Shown one piece after another: positions 13,132-40,795 of a DNA stretch of 64,000 nt. The translations under genes were made by a program, and so were the position numbers. The stretch is from an uncultured delta proteobacterium (lineage in GTDB: Bacteria; Desulfobacterota; WTBG01). Below the pieces are notes generated by a model that had not been told where the DNA came from, searched no databases, and worked only from the letters and a program-made list of their open reading frames with translations. The number at the start of each line of letters is the position of its first letter. Within the stretch, counting starts at the first letter, position 1. Where the stretch lies: NCBI GenBank assembly GCA_963793865.1, contig CAWCBP010000008.1:320001-384000 (forward strand), given 5' to 3'.

Positions 13132-15176
13132 ATGAACATTACCGGTTCGCTTTTAAAATTCTGTTTAACCTTCACAATTGCATTTCTCATATCCTGTGCC
13201 GGTGCCTCCGCATTCGCGGGGAGCATGTGTGTTGAACTGACGGAGTCAAACAGGCTGCCTGACGGTCAAGAGTACGCCGCCGTTACCTTAAGCTACATTT
13301 ATAATGGCGACAAGAGAGGGGTGAGAATGACCGTAAAGGAGAACGAGGACATTCTTTTACCCCGAAAATATTTTGGCATCCGGAGGTTCGGTTTCAACAC
13401 CACCCTGGCTAATCCGGCAAAAAACCTGAAGATTAAAGTTCCCCGCGAATGGACCCGAAGGTTTAAGCGCTTCAGTTATGGCACATTCGGCCAGTTTGAA
13501 GTGAACGTCAGCAGGCGGGTTCCTTCCCTGGGGAAGATCTATAAACGGGTAACCCCGCTTATCATGGATATTTACTACCGCAGTGGAGATTTATCCTATA
13601 ACGATTTCATAGTGGAAAATAAAAAAGGGTACAATTTCGCCGCACTGATTGCAAACTATACGTACGATGACAAATACAACCCGGGTGCCTGTTTTGCCAC
13701 AGAAGAAAAGCCCTATGCCTGTGAAAAACCGTCCACCACAACGACCATCATTAAGCCTTATACAACCACAACAACCGGACCGGGAAGCACCACAACAGCC
13801 AAGCCTTCTTCAACCACGACATCCAAACCGGTCAGTACATCCACCGTAAAGCCATCCTCGACCACCACATCAAAACCGTTGAGCACCACCACTGTTAAAC
13901 CAACGACGACGAGCACGGTTCCGGCCACCACAACATCCGTCCTGACGACGACCAGCTCGCTTCCGACGAGCACGGTTCCGGTTACAACCTCCTCGATGCC
14001 GTCGACCACCAGTTCCCAGCCGGTGATCACTACCATCAGTGCCGATCAACAACCACTTCACAGCCCTCAACCACCAGCACGCAGTTGACCACCACCACCT
14101 CGGTGCCCTCTATCTGCACGGGGGAGATTTACGAGGGCGGCACCTGTGACCTGGGGCTGCCCATTGACGACCCGGCCTATAACCGCCCGGGCAGGAGGGG
14201 GCTCGCGCTTACCTGCGAGGACATTGTGGACTTCTGCGTCTGCACCGACTGCGTGAATCTTGATCCGGCATGCTTGGCCTGGGCGATAGATCCCGCGGAG
14301 CCGTATTTGAGCATCGTCGCCAACCCCAACGGGAGCGCGCGGCTGACGGTGGGAGAATCCTGCGACCAGCTTGAGGAGATCAGGGAGTACACGGTGACGG
14401 TGACCGATACTTGTAATGGCTGGTCGGACAGCGTGGTGCTTGAGCTGGGCAAGGTGACCATCGACGTTCAGGATGTCAGCGTGAAGAAGGGGAGTGGATC
14501 CTTTAAGGTGCCGGTGAGTCTTGTCAATCGTTACAACGCGGTTCGGGCGATGAGCGTTGATATCTGCGAATGTGACGGGGGTAGTGACGGAATAGTGTGC
14601 GACAGCTGCAGCATCGATCCCGCGCGCGCGCTTGAGTTCAACTGCTCGGCGCATGAAACAGCCGACGGCTGCTGCAGGGTGGTGCTGTATTCCACCAATC
14701 CCGCCGCCTTTATTTTGCGAGGGGCAGGGACAGTGTTAAACGTAGTCTATGAAGCCGAGGAGGCTTTTGAGGGCTGCAGCTGTCTGAGGCCGGTAAACAG
14801 GCAGGTCTCGGACCAGTTTAATGAGGAACTCTGTGCCTGCCAGTCACCGGGGGATGTTTGTTTCAAATCCTGCGGAGACATCTACCCCCAGGACTGTCTC
14901 GGTCCCGACTGCACACCCTGCGGAGATAACGTGGTTAATCTTTTGGATATACTGGAGGCAGTTGATATCGTTCTGGGCTATCAAACTCCGACTGCCTGCC
15001 AGCTTGATCACGGCGATGTGCCTAACGGCAAGCCGCCTTATTGCGGAAACCCCGCGGGTACCCTCAACTGTGCTTCGGACGGGGACATTGACGTGCTCGA
15101 TCTCCTGGTCATTATTGACATGGCGCAGGGCAGGGCCAACTGCTGCGATTTTTGTCTGTTTAAGAAGATTTTTTAG
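13132..15176 (+). CDS. Secreted protein: unknown basic N-domain + Thr/Ser/Pro-rich linker + Ig-like + cohesin-like (class B) + classical-type dockerin; one frameshift at ~14043
   Basis: Signal peptide MNITG...SAFA. The T-rich tract continues across the frame change into ORF 14085-15176. VPVSLVN...DICEC...FNCSAHE..DGCCRVVLYS, then GDNVVNLLDIL and DGDIDVLDLL. Confidence 0.7.
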
Positions 15177-25933: not shown

Positions 25934-27163
25934 CTAGTAGTCGAATGTGAATTTCGTGGGTCCCATCTTGCCATCGTATACGGTCGAGCTGTTCCCCACG
26001 CTGGTGTCAAAATTCGGGACGGGGGCAATAGTGAATTCGCAGTTTCCTGTGCAGGTGCCGTAGAGCCGTGCAATGTTAATGGTGTCGTTTTGATCAGGTG
26101 CAACGCTGCCCAAATTACCCACAATAACCATATAGGTGCCGGGCCCCGAGGGGTTCGGGACTTTATTGGTCATGTCACTGTCCCAGGGTCCGCTCAAAGA
26201 AGAGCCGTCATAGACATCGGCACCGGTGATATTCATTTGAGATGGATCGTACTGGATCATGAAGCCGCTGGTAATAAGTTTTTCCGGTACATCTGATAAC
26301 CGGATGTCGACTTCCATTTGGTTGCCTGATCCCTCGTTTATGGCCCCGGCGGTATCTATTGCAAAACGGGGGGCACCTTCTATGGTCTGTTCCTGTTGAT
26401 TACCGCCGCTGCCGGGGAGGTTGTTTTCCTCTTCCATATTTGCATACAGGTCGGTGAGCGCGCTTTCCGCCGCCCTGCTCACCGCGGGATTGGGATCCTC
26501 AAGGGCCGATGTCAGCGGTCCCAGCGCGCCGTCACCCATTCTGGCCAAACCCTGCACCGCATTTACCTTGGCCGCTTCATCTCCCTCCTGCAGATCCTTT
26601 GACCATTCTTTCAGCGATTTAACGGTGTTTTCCCTGGGGGGCGTTTTTAAAACCTGTTTGTTTTCAGCCGGTTTGTTTTCGGCTTTATCGGTGCCGGCAG
26701 GATTTTGAGCGGACTTGCTGGCGCTTATGATCAAAGGTTTTTCAGATGACCCGCCTTTATTCTGTTCCTGAATATAAATCCTGACCTCCCTCAATGTGCC
26801 GGTTCCGGATCCCTTGTTCGCATCTGCCTGGTCATAAATGAAGACACGGTTATAGGAGGCCAGAACCTTATCTATTCCCTGATCAATGCCGAAGTTTGCA
26901 AATCGCACCATCAGCCTGTTCTGGCAAATAGAGGGCGGCAGGGAAAAGCTTATGCCGGTCTGGTCCGCAAGCTTTCGCAACACCTCTTCCAGAGGCGCGT
27001 CCTTGATATCTACCGACAACAGGTTATTTTCCAGCTTTGCGGTAAGAGAACCCATTGACAAGGCTGATTTCACCTCAGGTTTTCCCTGGCTCAAGCTGCA
27101 GAACCCTGCGGCAGATGAAAAAACAACAATCGTTATCACGCAGGCTATAAATAGTCTTTTCAT
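25934..27163 (-). CDS. Exported protein: secretin-N/STN-like domain + HEAT repeat + C-terminal cohesin-like (class A)
   Basis: LSVDIKDAPLEEVLRKLADQTGISF, then ALEDPNPAVSRAAESAL, then VDIRLSDVPE..ITSGF...YDP...YDG...GPWD...NFDT. Confidence 0.7.
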   Translation of the reverse strand: MKRLFIACVITIVVFSSAAGFCSLSQGKPEVKSALSMGSLTAKLENNLLSVDIKDAPLEEVLRKLADQTGISFSLPPSICQNRLMVRFANFGIDQGIDKVLASYNRVFIYDQADANKGSGTGTLREVRIYIQEQNKGGSSEKPLIISASKSAQNPAGTDKAENKPAENKQVLKTPPRENTVKSLKEWSKDLQEGDEAAKVNAVQGLARMGDGALGPLTSALEDPNPAVSRAAESALTDLYANMEEENNLPGSGGNQQEQTIEGAPRFAIDTAGAINEGSGNQMEVDIRLSDVPEKLITSGFMIQYDPSQMNITGADVYDGSSLSGPWDSDMTNKVPNPSGPGTYMVIVGNLGSVAPDQNDTINIARLYGTCTGNCEFTIAPVPNFDTSVGNSSTVYDGKMGPTKFTFDY

Positions 27164-27491
27164 GGGCACTCACCCCTTGGAGAATTATTCAGTTAAAACA
27201 GGTGGCCTGAGTTTTAAGTATGATAACGATTACACATCGGCTCTGGTCTTTAATTTAATAATATCATATTTTTAGATGCGGGTTAAGCAAAAAATTCAGG
27301 TCAAAATCCTGCGATGTGACCTCAGTATCCAATGCAATAGAGGCAACTGGATTCTGCAGCCGGGCCGCAGAATCCAGTACCTGCAAAATCATCAATTCAT
27401 GAGGATCAAACTTGACTGACAATTTTATTTAGATCCAGGACTTTTCCTCAACCTCCTTGAATCCTGGACCCTAAACCCTGGACCCTGTCTT

Positions 27492-32665: not shown

Positions 32666-35021
32666 CTAATACCAGCACCACCGGGGCGTATCACATTTGG
32701 TACAGGGGTTGCTGTATGCGCTTCTGCCGAAGTCTGATTTAAACAGCGACGCATCAGAACCGTCGACGTTCCCGTTGCAGGTAAAATCACCGTTGCAAAG
32801 GTTACTATTGGTACAGGGGTTGCTGTACGTGCTTCTGCCGAAATCCGCCTTGAAGGCTGCTGCATCACCGCCATCCACGTCCACGTCGCCATCGAAGTTA
32901 CCCTCACATTCACAGGCGTTGCCGCAGTTGTTACCGCCCGGGGGGTAGGTATCTTGCTGGAGGGGATTGGAGAGAATGGAGCAGTTGTCACAGGCGTTCC
33001 CCACGCCGTCACTGTCACCATCTTCCTGGCTGGTGCTGCAGACACCGCCCGTCCCGCAGTGGGCGTTGCTGGTGCAGATCACATTGACATAACCGCTCAT
33101 GCAGGTGCCCATGCTTGCGGCGTTGGGTGCCGAAGGACAGTTGTCCGCGCTGTCTGATACACCATCCTCGTCCATGTCGTCAGTCAGGCCGTTGAGCTGT
33201 TTGAAGACCTTCGCCCCGCCAAGTCCCGAAGGGGTGGAGCTTGCGCCCTTACTGCCGGCAACATACAGGTGACTGCCGAAAACGGCAAAACCCTCAAAAT
33301 TGATTATTTCCGGGTCTCCAAACCCGTTGCCGGTTACCTGGGTCCATGTCGTTACGTCAGAGGTTTTCCATATCTGCGATCCGAGCATCTCATCAATGTT
33401 GGCGGAGCATTGTATTCAGGAACATATTGACAGATAATCCCGCCATACAGGGTGCCGTTAACGGGAAAAGGTTTACCGCAAGGTTCTGGTACGCGACACC
33501 AAAGAAGGGGTAATCCTGAGGATATTTATATCCGTCAAATCCATTAGGATAGGGGGAATCTCCCAGGGGATCAACATAGGAAGGGTCAACGGGGTCCACA
33601 TTGGCTTCACCAACGGCGTACTGCCAACTTCCATCATCTTTAATTTCGGAAAGGCCACTTTGCGCAGAGAGCACCCGCGCCCCATCGCCTACAACCCCTA
33701 CCATAAGATTATTGTCAAAATCAGCAAGACTCCAGGGCATGAAATTGTATTGATTGGTTCCGCACCCCGGCGGGCTTCCGAACCCGTTTTCATTACTGCC
33801 GGTGGTGTTGCCGTCAACCGCGTTATCGACGATGAGCTCCCATCCGAACTCGGTAAGCCGGGCCATGCGCGCGCATCCGCCCAAATCACCGCCGGTGCCG
33901 GTTCCCCCCGCATACAGCACCGGCGTTCCGGAAACTGAAGATACTGTCAGGTCGGATACGCTGCTTGAAACGGGCTTATAGCCCCCGGGATAGGCAGCGC
34001 TGTTGGAGTGGAAATTGCCGAAGCTGTGGTAGTTATAGGGTGCAGGGATACTCAGGACGGAGGGGGTTACAAACCAGTCATCGCCGTTCTCGGTGTACCA
34101 GATCTGCCCTCCGGTTTCATAGTTCAGCCCCGTGCTCACGTAGAGCTTGTTATCAAAAATACGCATCGCGGTAATGGTCTTGTTCCAGAAGTCACCAAAA
34201 CCGTTTTCATCGTCCCCCATGCCGATTTCATAGGAATTGCCGACTGCGACCGCTCCGAGTGTATAAGAATAGGAAGGAAAGGGATTGTTATAAACGGCGC
34301 TGCTGCAGTTTGTGTATTCGGTTTCCACACCGCCGCTGTAAGTGCCGGCCGTTTCGTTCTGCTGAACCGTAAGGGTATTAGCTGTATTGCTTACAATTAC
34401 AAACCTTCTATAGATGCCGGAGCCTGAGGTTATCTGCAGCACCCCGCCGGCCCATTCATTGGGCGACCACGCTTGTGCGCTGTCAGTAATATCGGCTGTT
34501 CGAACCCCATCTCCTGCGGCGCAGCCGGCAATACCGGTTATGGTTCCGGATTCTTCCGCGTCTCTCTTATCTGAAATTACCGCCTCCCAGTTTGTCCCAT
34601 CATAGCGCCAGATCTCCGCGCCGGTTGAACCAAGGTAATTTCCCTGCAGGCCGGAAGAGAGTCCGAAATAGAGCTTGTCCTGAAAAACAATCATCCTGGC
34701 CCATACGTTGTTGATGTGAGTATTGCCATATACCCCGTTGGTTTCACCACCGGGGAACAGCACCTGTTCCCAGCCTGTTCCGCCCGTCCGCCAGACTTCA
34801 GTGCCCTCCAGCTGATTCCTGGTCATGGCATACAAATTTCCCCCGTATTCGGCCATCGCCACCACCGACATGTTATCATCGCTGCCGAAACCCGGCGGAT
34901 TTACCTGCACCCACAGTGAACCGTCTTCACCGGTAATTGCCTGGGACCATTCAGGTGAGATCAGAAGCAGTGGCAAGATGATGATTAAGGTGATGATTGA
35001 TTTTGATAAAATACTTCTCAT
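32666..35021 (-). CDS. Secreted probable beta-propeller protein + TSP3-like + dockerin-like tail; two frameshifts at ~33458 and ~33397
   Basis: Repeated GFG...N and EVWR/EIWR/QIWY/QIWK blades. The bridging frame reads NGTLYGGIICQYVPEYNAPP between ORFs 33393-35102 and 32666-33388. Confidence 0.72.
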
Positions 35022-35168
35022 GCTTATTCCTCCTTCTTTGATTCGAAAATAAATCGTGTGGAGGGACGCACTCTGTTGCGTCCGATGCTTGTATGCGGCC
35101 ATGACAGAGCAGGGCCCTCCATCATCGACGTTTTCCTGCGGCGTGAATGCAGAATCCGCTATGTTTAG

Positions 35169-38100
35169 CTACGGTGCAGCCGTGACCCCAAATCCCTCCC
35201 AAATAATCTCTCCACTTTGACTCTTGGAGTCAGTCACCACACAGCGGACAGCGTAGGTCCCCTCGTCACCGGCTTGCGGGGTCCACGCCCAGGTGGTGCT
35301 ATTAGAACCAACCGTGGTCCAGCCCGGATCTGCTGCTTCCTTAATTGACCAGGCATAAGTGTATGGCGATGTGCCGCCTGTCACCACAGTAGCCTGGAAG
35401 GTCACACTCTGGCCAACCGCGGTGCCCTCCTTTTCTCCGTTGGAGAGATACACCATGGGCTTGATGATTGCGTTAACCACCTGTTTTGCCAGCAGCTGTC
35501 CCACCCGGGGATCATTGTCGGGCGGGGCGTACATTTCCCAGGTACCCGTGTACTGGTCCTGCACCGGGTTATTGGGATCAGGTGCACCCACGAGGGGATC
35601 ATATCCCAGGTGTCCGAAATCGCTCAAATCGTAGGCAAGCGATGGATCCAGATCATGCGCCCGGTCGGGTAGTGGGGTGAGCCGGGGCGCCGGATACGGC
35701 CGCGGCAGCGGATCATCAGCGCAGCCTCCCATCACGAAGCAGCAGTCGGATGAAAGGGTCTGGGTTTCAGTGCCGTTAGCCAGCGCATTGCCGAAAGGAG
35801 TCTTGTCATCGCGGATGGTCTCATTATCGCTGAAGGAGCCGACCAGATCCTTAAGCACAATCCTGCCCGCGGCGTTTCCGCCGGCCCAGCTCCCGCTTTC
35901 CACCGCGACCTGTTTTATGATGCCCGTCGCTCCCGATGTTTGACCGACGAGCTTTGCCCCCGGCTCGAGAGAAACCGGGTTGGTGCCGCCGCCGGCTATC
36001 TGCGAGGTTCCACCGTCAAACAGGAGTTCCCACTCGCCGCAATCCTGGTATACCCAGTTGCCCCAGTAATCGGCAAAGGGGTGGCCAACGACGGGATACC
36101 TGGTGAAATCACCCACGCTCCACAGCGCCCAGTTCTTTATGCCGATCTCCTTGCCGATCTGGTTGGGAATTTCAACCATGTCCAGCGCCGAGGAGGTAAT
36201 GATTTGGGTGAAGCCGACCACGATATGCTGCACCCCCTTGGTATTTACCAGGTAATCGATGGCATCCCAGTAGAGATATCCCCAGGGGTGAAATTTCCCT
36301 CTCGGGTCTGAAGGATTGGGATACCCCGCGCTTGAAGGAAATTCCTTTGTCGTCTCGTAAAGGTACTGGTGCCCCAGGTTTTCCCCGCGCATAAAAATGG
36401 TTCTTTCAAGTAACGAGTGCTCTGCTTCGGGGTTTAGTTCTTTGACACCCATGCGGGCACCGATGATGTTATCCGGGTCCATGGTGGGATGGAGCGCGAC
36501 GAGCTGGTCCTTGATGTTTTCATTCAAAACCACGGTATCGTTTAATTTGGGATCGAACACCTCGTCCAGATCGTTGATGGCATGGTTGAGGATGATGACC
36601 CCCGTATTTGCATCAGAAACGGTCCCTGAGAATGATGCCTCTATTGCCTCCCTCTGCAGCGTGGCCAGGTCGGGATCCGCGGCAACCGGGTTGGGACTTC
36701 CGTTTAGCAGCACTTCACTGTCCTGGGTCGGTAGTGCCCCGGTAGACCTGGTCCACCCCGCCGGAAGAATGGGATAGGAGCGTTTCATGAGATCACTGTA
36801 GTCGTTGACCCAGAGGAGGGGAACGGTAATACCATAAGTGTTCTTCCATTCATCGAGGCGTTTCTGGGACATGTTTTTCACATCGTATGTCTTGGAGAAG
36901 CGCACGCCGCCGACGGTGAGGTCAACCATGATGATCCGGTACACACCCTGCTTGAGCAGCCGGTCTATCGGTCCGTCCACGTTGTAGCGATTCGGGTCGC
37001 AACCGGGCCAGGGACCGCCGGGCTCCCCCTCTCCGCAGTAGGTGCAGTTGGTGCCAACGCCGGGGCCGTCAGGGCCGTAGTAAATGAAGCGGGGGTAAGG
37101 ATAATGGTCGATGCAGTCCCCGCACATCCATCCCGCCCAGTCAGTGGCAAAATCAATGTTATGGCTGTCGTTTTCAAGCTCGGTCTCCATGTCAGACAGC
37201 TGATCCAGAGTCAGGCCGCCGAAGGGATCTGTTCCCCCGATGCGCGGATACTCAAAATCATACTTGGCCATAAATTTTAAGGAGGACTCAGCCGTCAGCA
37301 CAAAGTCCCAATAGGCGGGGTTCCAGATGGCCAGCTTGTAAACACTGTTGTTGGGATCGTATGAGAACTGCTGTACCCCGGTGTCCCAGATATACTGATC
37401 TACATTGGTATCTGTTCCGCCATGCACGGTAAACAGCACTCCCACCGGCCGGCCGGCGGCAGGGCAGGGGTTAGTGAGTGACGTTCTGCCGAAGTCTGAT
37501 TTGAACACTGCTGAATCAGTACCATCGGAATCGCTATCCCCGTCAAAATTGCCGTAGCAGGGGTTATCATAAGTGCATGGATTGCCGCTGAGAGTACTTC
37601 TGCCGAAACTCTTCTTGAACACTGCTGCATCCGTTCCATCCTGGTCCAGGTCGCAGTCGAAATTCCCCTCGCAGTCGCAGGCATCACCCACGCCGTTCCC
37701 GCCTGCGGGAGAAGTGTCTTCCTGGTTGGTGCTGCACACACCGCCGGTTCCGCACTGGTAATCAGCTATACAGGTTCTCCCCTTCACACCTTTTGTACAG
37801 GTACCCAGATTTGGACCGTTGGGGGTTGAGGGACAATTGTCTGAACCGGTGCAGGAAACATCAGATACACCGGGATTGCAGATGCCATCACAATCATCGT
37901 CTATATCTTCATTTGTCTGTACATGACAGTCTGTGCAATTACCCCCCCGGGGGATATGATTTTGTACTTCGTAGCATTGAGAATGGCAATTGGCGCAGCC
38001 CGACGTTTCAACCGGACCAGGCCCGGTATTTGTTCTGCAAGGAGATCCTGTGCCCCCGTTATGGCAAAGCAAACATTCGGCAGGGTCTGTTAGCCCAATT

Positions 38101-38261
38101 TGCGTAAAATGGAAAGCGTGAATGTTGCTGCGGGAATGGCACTGAAGGCAGTTCTGAGCTGCAGGTGGAGCGACGCATTCGTAGGCGAAAGCGGTGCAGG
38201 TAAACGCGGATACAATGAAAAGTAGAGTTATACCTAGTATTCCATGCTGAACCTTTTTCAT
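35169..38261 (-). CDS. Secreted fusion: tetraheme c-type cytochrome + TSP3/dockerin-like + ferrochelatase-like domain + PKD/Ig-like C-terminus
   Basis: CLQCH, CLLCH, CANCH and CTDCH, then an internal FK.xFGR pair. Chelatase-like motifs: VGVLFTVHGG, YPRIGGTDP, KQGVYRIIMV, IILNH and KGVQHIVV. Confidence 0.75.
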   Translation of the reverse strand: MKKVQHGILGITLLFIVSAFTCTAFAYECVAPPAAQNCLQCHSRSNIHAFHFTQIGLTDPAECLLCHNGGTGSPCRTNTGPGPVETSGCANCHSQCYEVQNHIPRGGNCTDCHVQTNEDIDDDCDGICNPGVSDVSCTGSDNCPSTPNGPNLGTCTKGVKGRTCIADYQCGTGGVCSTNQEDTSPAGGNGVGDACDCEGNFDCDLDQDGTDAAVFKKSFGRSTLSGNPCTYDNPCYGNFDGDSDSDGTDSAVFKSDFGRTSLTNPCPAAGRPVGVLFTVHGGTDTNVDQYIWDTGVQQFSYDPNNSVYKLAIWNPAYWDFVLTAESSLKFMAKYDFEYPRIGGTDPFGGLTLDQLSDMETELENDSHNIDFATDWAGWMCGDCIDHYPYPRFIYYGPDGPGVGTNCTYCGEGEPGGPWPGCDPNRYNVDGPIDRLLKQGVYRIIMVDLTVGGVRFSKTYDVKNMSQKRLDEWKNTYGITVPLLWVNDYSDLMKRSYPILPAGWTRSTGALPTQDSEVLLNGSPNPVAADPDLATLQREAIEASFSGTVSDANTGVIILNHAINDLDEVFDPKLNDTVVLNENIKDQLVALHPTMDPDNIIGARMGVKELNPEAEHSLLERTIFMRGENLGHQYLYETTKEFPSSAGYPNPSDPRGKFHPWGYLYWDAIDYLVNTKGVQHIVVGFTQIITSSALDMVEIPNQIGKEIGIKNWALWSVGDFTRYPVVGHPFADYWGNWVYQDCGEWELLFDGGTSQIAGGGTNPVSLEPGAKLVGQTSGATGIIKQVAVESGSWAGGNAAGRIVLKDLVGSFSDNETIRDDKTPFGNALANGTETQTLSSDCCFVMGGCADDPLPRPYPAPRLTPLPDRAHDLDPSLAYDLSDFGHLGYDPLVGAPDPNNPVQDQYTGTWEMYAPPDNDPRVGQLLAKQVVNAIIKPMVYLSNGEKEGTAVGQSVTFQATVVTGGTSPYTYAWSIKEAADPGWTTVGSNSTTWAWTPQAGDEGTYAVRCVVTDSKSQSGEIIWEGFGVTAAP

Positions 38262-38292
38262 TTTTACCCCCCTTACATTAAATGAGATGACT

Positions 38293-38337
38293 AAAAAAAG
38301 GACTTTCATGCGGGTATACACCCGGCAGAGAAAGTCC
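38293..38337 (-). terminator. Terminator-like hairpin in the 5' leader of the cytochrome fusion gene
   Basis: Minus strand GGACTTTC...GAAAGTCC followed by T7, ~30 nt before the ATG at 38261. Confidence 0.6.
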
Positions 38338-38688: not shown

Positions 38689-39189
38689 TCACTCAAAGCA
38701 GAAAACGCCTTTTTTCACCCCTGCGGGAAGAGGGTTTCTTTCTTCATCAGAAACCTTGACATTTTTTGAGGTGATATCAACACATCGGCCTTCAGGGGCT
38801 TCTTCCGATACATCATAGCTGACATTGATGATCTGGCCCGCCTCCGCAGGAATCGCATTGCCGCTTAATGATACGAGCATTATTCTGAAGCAGCCGTCGG
38901 AAAGCTCGTTGAATGCGCAGGTGAATCCGGAAGCATTGCCCACGGCTTCGCAACCGACACCCTGCAGGTAGTTTCCTTTATCGCAGATATCCGCTTGAAT
39001 GCCTTTGACCGTGTTGGCAGGATTGTCAAGGGTTATCTCCACCAGGTTGTTTTCACTGCCCGGGGATCCTGAGCCGTTTTCAATGGTCAGGTAGATTTCC
39101 GCCTGTTGGCAGGAGGTCAGGCAGATGATGGCCAACGGGATGATCATAAGCATTGCTTTTGAAGTAAGGGTAAAGTGTCTCTTGTTCAT
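38689..39189 (-). CDS. Lipoprotein consisting of a single cohesin-like (class B) domain
   Basis: Lipobox LTSC, then VEITLDN...IQADICD.GNYL..VGCE...FTCAFNEL.DGCFRIMLVS. Confidence 0.75.
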   Translation of the reverse strand: MNKRHFTLTSKAMLMIIPLAIICLTSCQQAEIYLTIENGSGSPGSENNLVEITLDNPANTVKGIQADICDKGNYLQGVGCEAVGNASGFTCAFNELSDGCFRIMLVSLSGNAIPAEAGQIINVSYDVSEEAPEGRCVDITSKNVKVSDEERNPLPAGVKKGVFCFE

Positions 39190-39226
39190 GGTGGCATCCT
39201 TTGCGCTGAGCCCGGTGAACCGGAGT

Positions 39227-40795
39227 TTACTTTCTTTTGCGGACCAGCAAAATACCGGCGACGGCAATAAAAGCTGCCAGTGCAATCAGGGTACCGGGGA
39301 AAAAGGGGCTTCCGGACTTGGCGGTCCCGCCCTCAACAGCGCCGCCGTCTGCCGGGCCGGCCGGGGAAAATGCATCGCCCGGTGCCACGGTTACCAGCGC
39401 ATCGCTGCTGAGATTATCCCTGCTGTCTTTTATCATAATAATGTCGAGCGATTCCTCATTGGTCCTGTTGATGCCGGCTGTATATAAGCCCGCCCCGGTA
39501 ATGGTTGAACCGATTTTACTGCTCACTTTCCATTGGTATGCACCCTCGGCGCAGGTTTTGCCGACTTTTTTTGCAGTGAAGGTTATGACATTTCCGGGAG
39601 AGATTTCCGCCGAAGAGGGGGTCAGCAGCAACGCACAACCTTCAGAAGGTTCCTTTATGCCTTCTATGGTTATGGTTGCCGTCGCGCTCATGCTCTTATT
39701 TGAGGTGTCTGTTACACGGATGGTTTCCTGAACCGGCGAGCCGGAGGCGTTGATGCCCGCAGTAAATATCCCGTCCGCATCGATGGTGCTTCCGATGCCG
39801 CTTGGCGGAAATATCTCCCACCTGTACTTTCCCGTTACCTCTCTGCCTCCCGCGATGGTTTGAGCATCGAGCGCCAGTATTCCTTTGGAATTGATTACCG
39901 ACAGGGACGGTGAGATGATCAGCCGGGATTCCTCGCTTGCGGAGTCGCTTTTTGTCCCGGATGCCCCGGCGGAACGTGTATCGCTCTCCCGGGAGGCGGC
40001 GCTGCTTTTGCTGCCGGCAGTCCGGTTGCGGGAAGAGCCTCCGGTCGAGGTAAAGGTGTCAGTCTCAGGGGAGGCTTCCTGCACGCTGGTGGTCAATCCC
40101 CCCATGGGGGTTCTTAAGCCTGCCTGTGGATTTGCCGCGGCATTCGTGGAGTTGGTGGCGGGGGTTCCGGCCGCGGGTTCGTCCCCCGCGGTTTCAGGGC
40201 TTTCCGTGTTACCGGTATCGCCGGAGCGAGGGGTGGTGGTTGTGTCATCGCCGCTGCCGCCGCTGATGCAAAACTCACCACGTTCCGGCATGACAGTTAA
40301 TCCCCTCGAATTTAGAACTCCCGGGATTTCTGGACGTGCGACTTTTGCGAGCCTTGGATTGAGCGAGATGCAGCCGGAGGGTGCATTTTCTGAAACTTCG
40401 TAAGTGATTCGGGCGATTGGTCCATTGCCAGGTGCAATGGTATCCCCGAATCCCATAAGCGATATATCAGCGCATCCGGGAGCCTGCCGGCATGCAGCGA
40501 TCTTTGCATCGGTTCTGCACTCGTTCACGTAACAGGAAAGGCTGGAAGCGCGGCCCGTAGACGCGCAGCTTTTGACGGACAGATAATTGCCTTCATCACA
40601 AATATAGACATGCACCCCCGTCACGATGTCAGATGCATTGTCGAGCGTAAGCGTTATGGAACCGTTTTCTGAACCGGCCTCCGCCGAGCCGTTTCCGATG
40701 TCAAGAATGACATCTTCGGCGTATGCCCCCGGGCAAAAACAAAGGGCTGCCAGCAGACCAAGCAGTGATACAAGGGAGGGATTCTTAGATAGCAT
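39227..40795 (-). CDS. Surface protein: cohesin-like (class B) + S/T/A-rich linker + two Ig-like repeats + C-terminal TM anchor with basic tail
   Basis: Signal peptide, ITLTLDN...ICDEGNYL, IGSTI...G..TAG twice, and the ending SPFFPGTLIALAAFIAVAGILLVRKRK. Confidence 0.75.
   Translation of the reverse strand: MLSKNPSLVSLLGLLAALCFCPGAYAEDVILDIGNGSAEAGSENGSITLTLDNASDIVTGVHVYICDEGNYLSVKSCASTGRASSLSCYVNECRTDAKIAACRQAPGCADISLMGFGDTIAPGNGPIARITYEVSENAPSGCISLNPRLAKVARPEIPGVLNSRGLTVMPERGEFCISGGSGDDTTTTPRSGDTGNTESPETAGDEPAAGTPATNSTNAAANPQAGLRTPMGGLTTSVQEASPETDTFTSTGGSSRNRTAGSKSSAASRESDTRSAGASGTKSDSASEESRLIISPSLSVINSKGILALDAQTIAGGREVTGKYRWEIFPPSGIGSTIDADGIFTAGINASGSPVQETIRVTDTSNKSMSATATITIEGIKEPSEGCALLLTPSSAEISPGNVITFTAKKVGKTCAEGAYQWKVSSKIGSTITGAGLYTAGINRTNEESLDIIMIKDSRDNLSSDALVTVAPGDAFSPAGPADGGAVEGGTAKSGSPFFPGTLIALAAFIAVAGILLVRKRK

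Follow-up and report, generated by a model that had tools for sequence, protein, structure and literature searches.

A predicted exported protein joining a tetraheme cytochrome and a dockerin-like cassette to a class II chelatase fold in an uncultured delta proteobacterium

Here we focus on a single gene in a 64,000-nucleotide stretch of DNA (the window; assembly GCA_963793865.1, contig CAWCBP010000008.1, positions 320,001 to 384,000) from an uncultured delta proteobacterium. One open reading frame (ORF) fills positions 35169-38261 of the window on the minus strand, with its ATG at 38261 and its stop at 35169-35171. Its product of 1030 residues consists of a signal peptide, four CxxCH motifs, a TSP3/dockerin-like cassette, a core of 675 residues and a C-terminal immunoglobulin (Ig)-like domain, in that order. 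Judged by its modeled structure, the core belongs to the class II chelatase superfamily as a divergent member without annotation, and it is nearest in shape to the HemH/CpfC ferrochelatases. It defines an unannotated, apparently exported family, of which the form fused to a cytochrome and a dockerin-like cassette is the new element. Enzymes of the ferrochelatase type are known from textbooks for biosynthesis in the cytoplasm or at the membrane, and to our knowledge only a few small CbiK-type relatives work outside the cell. A first-pass annotation, made from the sequence letters alone, had described the gene as a fusion of a tetraheme cytochrome, a dockerin-like cassette and a ferrochelatase-like domain behind a signal peptide. 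This observation as a whole is confirmed as real, and the existence of 455 homologues of the core puts it far beyond chance.

Fold of the Core

The core spans residues 266-940 (35442-37466; this and all further coordinates of the gene and its parts refer to the minus strand). From sequence searches, its nature was not evident. Pfam and NCBIfam scans of the whole protein gave no chelatase match. The cut-off of the ferrochelatase model PF00762 (27 bits) was not reached, with the homologue P0019 scoring 10.2 bits and a family member in genome G035 matching at E 5.2e-4, still below the cut-off. When phmmer and hmmsearch were run against PDB sequences, the ferrochelatase rows were non-significant and chance antibody rows ranked higher, and a search of the ESM Atlas with the core returned no usable match.

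Structural comparison provided the necessary information. An AlphaFold model of the core, built from an alignment with 58 homologues, had a predicted local distance difference test (pLDDT) score of 85.5 and a predicted template modeling (pTM) score of 0.86, and every one of its 44 Foldseek matches at E ≤ 0.001 was a ferrochelatase. In a VIA-align comparison covering 48,161 representative chains, the top representative was B. subtilis CpfC (Z 23.1, 307 of 311 residues, root-mean-square deviation 3.1), with yeast ferrochelatase (Z 21.2), SirB (16.2), FetB (14.9), periplasmic CbiK (14.9), CbiK (14.0) and CbiX (12.2) lower down. The seven best representative chains were all class II chelatases, after which the score dropped to Z 9.2 for sugar-binding proteins. 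Listeria CpfC was best in a second comparison (Z 24.2, root-mean-square deviation 2.8, 305 of 309 residues), which also placed human ferrochelatase at Z 22.3 and periplasmic CbiK at Z 15.2. CpfC/HemH chains thus reach Z 23-24 with 302-307 of their 306-311 residues aligned. An entire ferrochelatase, C-terminal helix included, is embedded in the 675-residue core of the model, and the remainder consists of insertions.

The model shows the two alpha/beta lobes and central cleft that characterize the class II chelatase superfamily, and it is superposable on the solved members. The fold match that the first-pass annotation had asked for is a strong one. On this basis the core is placed in the superfamily by its modeled fold. 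It is not filed as a ferrochelatase because it fails the PF00762 model and because the column of the catalytic Glu is ambiguous, as described below.

Active-Site Residues and Insertions

Residues were mapped by aligning the family profile with hhalign to 18 canonical HemH sequences drawn from genomes of this phylum (global E 4.5e-7 over 301 columns; local E 9.2e-5 over 285 columns). Human numbering was obtained by aligning one HemH sequence to the human ferrochelatase chain 2qd3_A, which begins at residue 65, and conservation was counted across 204 family sequences. The motif order of the core had been said to recall HemH-type chelatases, and in the profile-profile alignment all five of the proposed motifs coincide with their ferrochelatase counterparts.

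His560 (core H295; 36582-36584) falls in the column that holds the catalytic His263 in human ferrochelatase, where 196 of 197 family sequences have His, and the Asp-Pro that follows it coincides with the conserved Asp-Pro of ferrochelatases. His280 (core H15; 37422-37424) occupies the column of human Met76 and is His in 187 of 195 sequences. Met76 (Tyr13 in B. subtilis) and His263 are residues that we take to face the macrocycle from opposite sides; if that geometry applies, the family would carry one His on each face. The catalytic acid is another matter. The column of Glu343 contains Asn in 110, Asp in 59, Thr in 20 and Ser in 8 of 203 sequences, whereas a Glu found in 194 of 203 sequences, Glu697 (core E432; 36171-36173), lies three residues past it. 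The His341 column holds Val or Ala in the family, and His679 is conserved in 195 of 198 sequences. Of the catalytic pair that the first-pass annotation had proposed to check, the His is kept in its column and the Glu is not, with Glu697 as a possible equivalent; by alignment, the active site is thus half kept.

The core differs from HemH by four additions, namely residues 396-430, 605-663 and 742-839 and a C-terminal extension. The first insertion (36972-37076), located in the N-lobe and without regular secondary structure in the model, is Cys-rich. Cysteines in this region are C380, C383, C406, C409 and C421, in agreement with the Cys-rich insertions noted earlier, and of the family sequences compared all 204 have C409, while C421 is found in 196 out of 197. 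Residues 742-839 (35745-36038) form a beta-rich domain, as judged from the strands of the model, that is placed inside a four-Cys motif (C741, C840, C841 and C847), each Cys being present in 190-192 of 193-203 sequences. A minimal paralogue on contig C2 of the source genome lacks the beta domain and has its four Cys within 15 residues. For a protein exported by the general secretory (Sec) pathway, disulfides would be the simpler reading of this motif, with a metal site as the alternative. In the homologue P0015, a second copy of the beta-rich insert is found at residues ~430-520, within the Cys-rich first insertion, so this insert acts as a mobile module in the family.

The Fusion and Its Origin

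The first-pass annotation had named an assembly chimera as the finding that would undo it. The same order of signal peptide, four CxxCH motifs, cassette and core is found in three other assemblies (L001, P0004 and P0015), and the fusion is real because these assemblies share its architecture. L001 comes from another metagenome-assembled genome (MAG); its core is 89% identical and its CxxCH motifs begin at residues 38, 62, 89 and 109.

Both halves of the protein also exist separately in the same genome. One is P0272, a cytochrome-cassette protein of 277 residues (C12:80177-81007) with 64% identity to residues 1-268 of the fusion protein; the other is a paralogue with the order signal peptide, dockerin-like segment, core and Ig domain (C14:214183-216396). 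Between the fusion protein and the C14 paralogue, identity amounts to 89% in the dockerin-like segment and 57% in the core. P0270, which like P0272 and P0273 is a stand-alone cytochrome-cassette protein (277-296 residues for the three), is 84% identical to the fusion protein through to the end of the dockerin-like segment. From these sequence comparisons, the fusion would have arisen by recombination within the shared cassette. The tail of P0272 is rich in conserved Cys and Trp, and the fused protein has no such tail.

Public contigs that match the gene are at most 352 nt long and come from relatives at 90-99% identity, and none of them spans it. A DNA contig of a relative bridges the junction between dockerin-like segment and core, and a contig from an RNA library bridges the junction between cytochrome and cassette, which as evidence is weak and concerns relatives only. 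A single RNA-library run gave two contigs on the gene.

Tetraheme Cytochrome Module

Residues 27-118 (37908-38183) form the cytochrome module. Its four CxxCH motifs lie at residues 38-42, 63-67, 89-93 and 109-113, with none elsewhere in the protein. They had been reported to fall within about 80 residues, and the distance from the first Cys to the last His is indeed 76 residues. When residues 27-114 were scanned alone, the Pfam model Cytochrome_C7 (PF14522) scored 21.1 bits (E 2.8e-4) against a cut-off of 24.8 bits. Histidines outside the motifs are H48, H51 and H102. The genome encodes cytochrome c assembly proteins, with two PF01578 matches over the cut-off (186.6 and 110.1 bits). With four CxxCH motifs, a signal peptide that can be read from the sequence and maturation genes in the genome, the module has the features of a multiheme c-type cytochrome and would be expected to carry four covalently attached hemes.

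Export and Distribution of the Family

The signal peptide is of the Sec type and takes up residues 1-26 (38184-38261). Its features can be read directly from the sequence: a basic N-terminus, a hydrophobic stretch at residues 8-20 and Ala-Phe-Ala at residues 24-26 ahead of the predicted cut. The view of the first-pass annotation, an exported protein with a dockerin-like tag, is supported by sequence and by homology. Export is not peculiar to this protein. The N-terminus is complete in 182 of 203 family sequences, and 169 of these have a hydrophobic signal-like run in their first 45 residues. In 134 of the 182 the core begins no more than 60 residues from the start, and many of these have a lipoprotein-like Cys. 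From its N-termini, the family appears always to be exported.

The 455 homologues mentioned above came from a word-indexed search at E ≤ 0.001 with 7998 scored candidates. Among the 120 that were listed, the source names say 'hypothetical protein' at most, and no Pfam domain was found on the core. A search of 1.84 billion representatives gave 2641 matches at E ≤ 0.001, a number that is not a family size because many of the 150 matches listed are long multi-stretch proteins that match the Ig positions of the profile only; no canonical ferrochelatase was discernible among these 150, in a library that carries no names. In species-representative genomes, 188 relatives were confirmed and 79 distinct loci kept, 51 of them from MAGs that are unclassified or of the Thermodesulfobacteriota type, the other 28 from Gamma- or Alphaproteobacteria. 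Distribution within the phylum was assessed in an even sample of 151 genomes with a family threshold of E ≤ 1e-20. The family was present, in several copies each, in the source genome and in all four other genomes of its class, and in none of the 146 genomes outside the class. The source genome has four family copies: two plain and lipoprotein-like, one dockerin-tagged, and the gene described here. No description of an exported HemH-like family was found in the literature searched.

Gene Neighborhoods

Around the 79 family loci, ORFs were called and clustered and the recurrent clusters annotated. The commonest neighbor cluster is a ferredoxin-dependent bilin reductase (PF05996), with 20 proteins in 13 loci; 14 of the 20 exceed the PF05996 cut-off, 4 are sub-threshold and 2 have no match. 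A second PF05996 cluster occurs in 5 loci, 2 of them in common with the first, and hhalign relates the two clusters with 96.8% probability (E 2.5e-10). Altogether, bilin-reductase genes are found near the family gene in 16 of 79 loci, all of them within the 51 that are not from Gamma- or Alphaproteobacteria. Also recurrent are genes for a split-barrel PNPOx/HutZ-like protein (in 10 loci), for geranylgeranyl-reductase-like flavoproteins (in 8), for a Flavin_Reduct protein whose PCP_red domain of protochlorophyllide reductase is sub-threshold (in 6) and for an OYE/FadH Fe-S flavoenzyme (in 5), together with MFS transporters. Five loci (L017, L022, L047, L051 and L058) share a same-strand order: MMPL, DUF1302, DUF1329, BNR, the family gene, a bilin reductase, a small exported protein, the PNPOx/HutZ-like protein, Flavin_Reduct/PCP_red and MFS. 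The OYE-type neighbor could not be assigned to bilirubin reductase, as it scores 358 bits against a cut-off of 750 and the BaiCD and mycofactocin models score alike.

At the level of genomes, PF05996 exceeds its cut-off in the same 5 of the 151 genomes as the family (G000, the source genome, and G035, G074, G108 and G141), with 11-15 matches each, and three of the four same-class genomes have a PF05996 match no more than 10 kb from a family copy. The available text of a paper on pre-PcyA gene clusters mentions no chelatase-like neighbor (PMC10151467). Canonical ferrochelatase is found in 58 of the 151 genomes. The five family-bearing genomes have weak PF00762 matches only, none above 57 bits, and canonical ferrochelatase was not found in the source genome; neither heme oxygenase (PF01126) nor CobN (PF02514) was found in it at a completeness of 98.6%.

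Several side observations concern these loci. In the Gamma- and Alphaproteobacterial loci (L035-L079), the family gene is flanked in 12 cases by a DUF1838 protein with a twin-arginine translocation (Tat) signal, often with a FAD_binding_4 oxidase upstream, and L075 has the tandem order family-DUF1838-DUF1838-family-DUF1838. No description of DUF1838 was found in the literature searched. In L014, L016, L025 and L033, tandem pairs of small Tat-signal proteins (cluster c17, 212-239 residues, no family match) directly follow the family gene. By hhalign, clusters c17, c32, c24, c25 and c15 and DUF1838 have no relation to the bilin-reductase clusters. The source genome also encodes a second secreted protein of 516 residues (L081 424-1971; G000 C4:289495-291042) with a sub-threshold PF00762 score of 24.5 bits, which was tried as a family member and found to be unrelated by hhalign. 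The same-class genomes also contain similar frames of 440-520 residues that match PF00762 weakly, and a part of these lie close to family or PF05996 genes.

Proposed Function and Alternative Explanations

We propose that the protein is a surface-docked, cytochrome-wired module that binds tetrapyrroles and may insert or remove their metal, a proposal to which we give about an even chance of being right. The protein would be exported by the Sec pathway, its signal peptide removed, and its c7/c3-like N-terminal module fitted with the four hemes. The internal cassette would tether it to cohesin-like scaffold proteins encoded next door, as one of about 70 cassette-tagged proteins in the organism. 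A tetrapyrrole would be held in the cleft between the lobes, between His280 and His560, and its central metal would be removed or inserted there, outside the cytoplasm. The fused cytochrome could deliver electrons and set the redox state of the bound metal; for example, an Fe(III)-porphyrin might be reduced to Fe(II), the form that a ferrochelatase-type site could release or insert. Ferrochelatase chemistry deals with Fe(II). The first-pass annotation had gone as far as an exported redox and tetrapyrrole- or metal-handling module plugged into the surface complex; its interpretation is supported for structure and export, and for function it is plausible, with the bilin-reductase genes near family members lending it indirect support.

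Precedents exist. According to the available text of the respective papers, anaerobic heme de-chelation by HmuS requires a reductant and reduced bound heme (PMC12583661), and exported class II chelatases that bind metalloporphyrins are represented by the periplasmic CbiK of D. vulgaris and FetB of P. gingivalis (PMC13065792).

A number of results, however, weigh against the proposal. PF00762 has no match on the whole protein at E ≤ 1, and the family profile reaches ferrochelatases among PDB sequences at E 0.35 at best. The catalytic Glu is not conserved in its column, and the equivalence of Glu697 to Glu343 is unproven. The AlphaFold model of residues 27-270 is poor (pLDDT 55.9, with the cytochrome part below 50), and the sole non-motif His kept across three aligned cytochrome-bearing sequences is H102. 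Fusion to a cytochrome is rare, being found only in P0001 (the present protein), P0004 and P0015 among the 120 homologues listed and in L001. The gene lies among propeller and TPR genes in a cohesin/dockerin island, and not in a metabolic operon. None of the four family copies in the source genome stands beside a PF05996 gene, the nearest being 31 kb away; one copy adjoins a PNPOx-like gene and one an OYE-type gene only. The co-occurrence of the family with PF05996 in five genomes reflects one clade and so is not independent evidence. Lastly, bilin-reductase neighbors are found in 0 of the 28 Gamma- and Alphaproteobacterial loci, which instead often pair the family with DUF1838 and the FAD_binding_4 oxidase.

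The main rival, which we consider possible but doubtful, is that the chelatase-fold domain is not an enzyme at all. It would be a stable heme- or porphyrin-binding module in which the two His ligate a heme b from both faces, making the protein a five-heme electron-transfer protein of the surface or a docked protein for heme capture, akin to a hemophore. His280 and His560 are both nearly invariant, and the former replaces Met76, which presumably faces the macrocycle from the side opposite to His263. The loss of the acid column points the same way, a half-kept active site favoring a holder, and fusion to a cytochrome would fit a redox chain. The periplasmic CbiK of D. vulgaris and FetB bind metalated porphyrins as isolated, in the available account of them (PMC13065792). 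However, most family members have no cytochrome, and many are encoded in operons with transporters and cytoplasmic reductases, which suggests turnover rather than a fixed cofactor. Moreover, the multiple paralogues per genome look more like a substrate-diversified family.

The proposal of a cytochrome-wired tetrapyrrole module can also be taken further. The protein may be a cell-surface, cytochrome-powered demetallating enzyme, in which the tetraheme module passes electrons to metalloporphyrins from the environment (heme, and perhaps pigments derived from chlorophyll or corrinoids) that sit in the cleft, so that they are reduced and the metal is released. The family would then be the extracytoplasmic entry step of an oxygen-independent scavenging and breakdown of tetrapyrroles that continues via the expanded bilin reductases and the flavoproteins of this sulfate-reducer-type class. 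In this full form we regard the idea as rather unlikely.

Distinctly unlikely is a reuse of the fold beyond tetrapyrroles, whether for free metal ions, for a hydrophobic ligand of the DUF1302/DUF1329/MMPL envelope system, or for some other enzymatic or adhesive role at the surface. It draws on the absence of tetrapyrrole-type neighbors from all 28 Gamma- and Alphaproteobacterial loci and on the surface- and adhesion-type genes around the present gene. Three large insertions and an extension of 95 residues remodel the domain, and clusters with DUF1302 and DUF1329 are tied, in the available parts of the literature, to the handling of fatty acids, alcohols and monoterpenes. Against this, all solved matches above Z 12 are tetrapyrrole chelatases, the catalytic His on the porphyrin side is retained by 196 of the 197 sequences, and the commonest conserved neighbors are PF05996 bilin reductases, with the PCP_red-containing flavin reductase recurring too.

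That the reading frame is an artefact, either an assembly chimera or a decaying pseudogene without a protein product, is extremely improbable: local errors or decay do occur, as in the downstream gene that is split here and forms one ORF of 812 residues in L001, and no public contig spans the whole stretch, but the frame is unbroken over 1030 codons behind a good ribosome-binding site, its architecture recurs in three other assemblies, the conserved family residues are all intact, and contigs of relatives bridge both the dockerin-core and the cytochrome-cassette junctions, if weakly.

Relation to Known Systems

With HemH/PpfC and CpfC (PF00762; PDB 8aw7, 1ak1 and 1hrk), the core shares the two-lobe fold, aligned over nearly the whole enzyme at Z 22-24, the order of the five motifs, and the His of the His263 column with the Asp-Pro after it. 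The differences are considerable. The present protein is predicted to be exported, whereas HemH and CpfC are cytoplasmic or membrane-associated. Its core is about twice their size, owing to the three insertions and to the C-terminal extension with its four Cys. It belongs to a family with His in the Met76 column, without conservation of the Glu343 and His341 columns and without a PF00762 match, and fusion has added a cytochrome, a dockerin-like tag and an Ig domain to it.

The periplasmic CbiK of D. vulgaris (2xvx) and FetB of P. gingivalis (9b86) have in common with it a class II chelatase fold outside the cytoplasm. In contrast, these are small (~260-270 residues), single-domain proteins without cytochrome or dockerin, and they match the core at Z 14.9-15.2 compared with 24 for CpfC. 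FetB is described, in the portion of the paper available, as a hemin-binding homologue of CbiK in the outer membrane that can insert Co and Mn into an analogue of porphyrin, that surface Mn-protoporphyrin depends on, and that showed no reverse activity on hemin; its structure was solved with the help of periplasmic CbiK from D. vulgaris, a protein that likewise binds metalated porphyrins (PMC13065792). HmuS, the CobN-like heme de-chelatase of Bacteroidota, resembles the proposed mechanism in that iron is removed anaerobically from reduced heme in a reductant-dependent manner, as far as the available text describes it (PMC12583661). However, it is a class I chelatase relative with a fold unrelated to that of the core, and no CobN-type gene was found in the source genome.

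A HemH-like fold thus defines a sizeable exported family that is unseen by domain libraries, and one member of it is joined to a tetraheme cytochrome and a docking tag. The expansion of bilin reductases in the clade, with no canonical heme oxygenase, CobN-type chelatase or ferrochelatase found in the source genome, points to an undescribed anaerobic pigment route. Such a route might serve the capture, demetallation or recycling of heme- or chlorophyll-type pigments in sediments and wetlands. If true, this would have consequences for how iron is acquired, for the turnover of pigments in anoxic carbon cycling and for how far the chelatase fold has ranged in evolution.

The Dockerin-Like Cassette and Surrounding Genes

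The cassette takes up residues 119-265, inside the protein, and consists of a TSP3-like Cys-rich first half (residues 119-194; 37680-37907), assigned by homology, and a dockerin-like pair of duplicated Asp-rich segments (residues 195-265; 37467-37679). TSP_3 matches in Pfam are found in P0019, P0004 and a neighboring ORF. That the cassette is the one used across the island, here placed internally, had been noted before and holds up in alignment: it matches the C-terminal cassette of the neighboring ORF 32666-33388 at 47% identity (E 6e-37) and the N-terminal TSP_3 and Dockerin_1 region of P0019 at 37% identity (E 9e-17). The P0019 dockerin exceeds the PF00404 cut-off (25.2 versus 22.9 bits), and the P0015 cassette scores 14.8 bits. 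The cassette of the present protein has no PF00404 match even at E ≤ 10, and for this reason the label 'dockerin-like' rests on homology and on the duplicated Asp-rich segments. These calcium-loop segments, a feature of type I dockerins, lie at residues 200-222 and 237-259, and the model has helices at residues 209-218 and 247-256 within the pair, at medium confidence.

Candidate docking partners are encoded close by. Immediately around the gene are cohesin-like, propeller, TPR and glycosyltransferase genes, and the cohesin-like lipoprotein gene upstream (38692-39285, minus strand) is the candidate partner, as read from its sequence; a further cohesin-like module is encoded at 39230-40795. The lone Pfam Cohesin match in the window is a weak one, in ORF 25934-27169 (E 0.0043). 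Across the source genome, the cassette is coded at 71 distinct places (61 with a match of at least 60 residues), and there are 17 cohesin-like modules, most of them between 310 kb and 361 kb of contig C8, in or beside the window. Such places include window positions 14451, 19072, 38692 and 40328 and C8:310261-319134. By these counts from sequence, the cohesin-dockerin secretome is very large for an anaerobe that is not cellulolytic. Dockerin-tagged secreted proteins and encoded cohesins are likewise found in non-cellulolytic syntrophic sulfate reducers and anaerobic methanotrophic (ANME) archaea, and the modules are read as adhesion or assembly systems, those of the sulfate reducers as adhesins. 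In contrast to those modules, which are terminal, the cassette here is internal and has an extra TSP3/Cys-rich half, and no chelatase-fold cargo was found described in the available text of either paper (PMC10553843; PMC9012536).

The C-terminal Ig-like domain (He_PIG/PKD type; residues 941-1030; 35172-35441) was assigned from Pfam and PDB-sequence matches. He_PIG matches residues 949-1017 at E 9e-4, under the cut-off, and Ig domains of phage decoration proteins match at E 0.003-0.004 by phmmer. At the other end of the gene, a purine run resembling a Shine-Dalgarno sequence (38267-38274) is found 5 nt 5' of the ATG, at the end of an AT-rich upstream spacer of 428 bp that contains a promoter-like site. 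Because these features precede it, the ATG at 38261 is preferable to a GTG at 38321.

Two minor points concern the adjacent ORFs. Downstream on the minus strand lie ORFs 33393-35102 (569 residues) and 32666-33388 (240 residues, with the dockerin-like cassette at its end), which correspond to a single ORF of 812 residues in the related contig L001 (3523-5961), so that the gene directly downstream appears to be broken in two here, whether by a stop, by a frameshift or by an error of sequencing. Upstream, the cohesin-like ORF 38689-39285 is listed with a TTG start that makes it overlap the end of ORF 39227-40795 by 59 nt. An internal Met that lies 32 codons farther downstream, directly ahead of a lipoprotein-like signal, is the likelier start.

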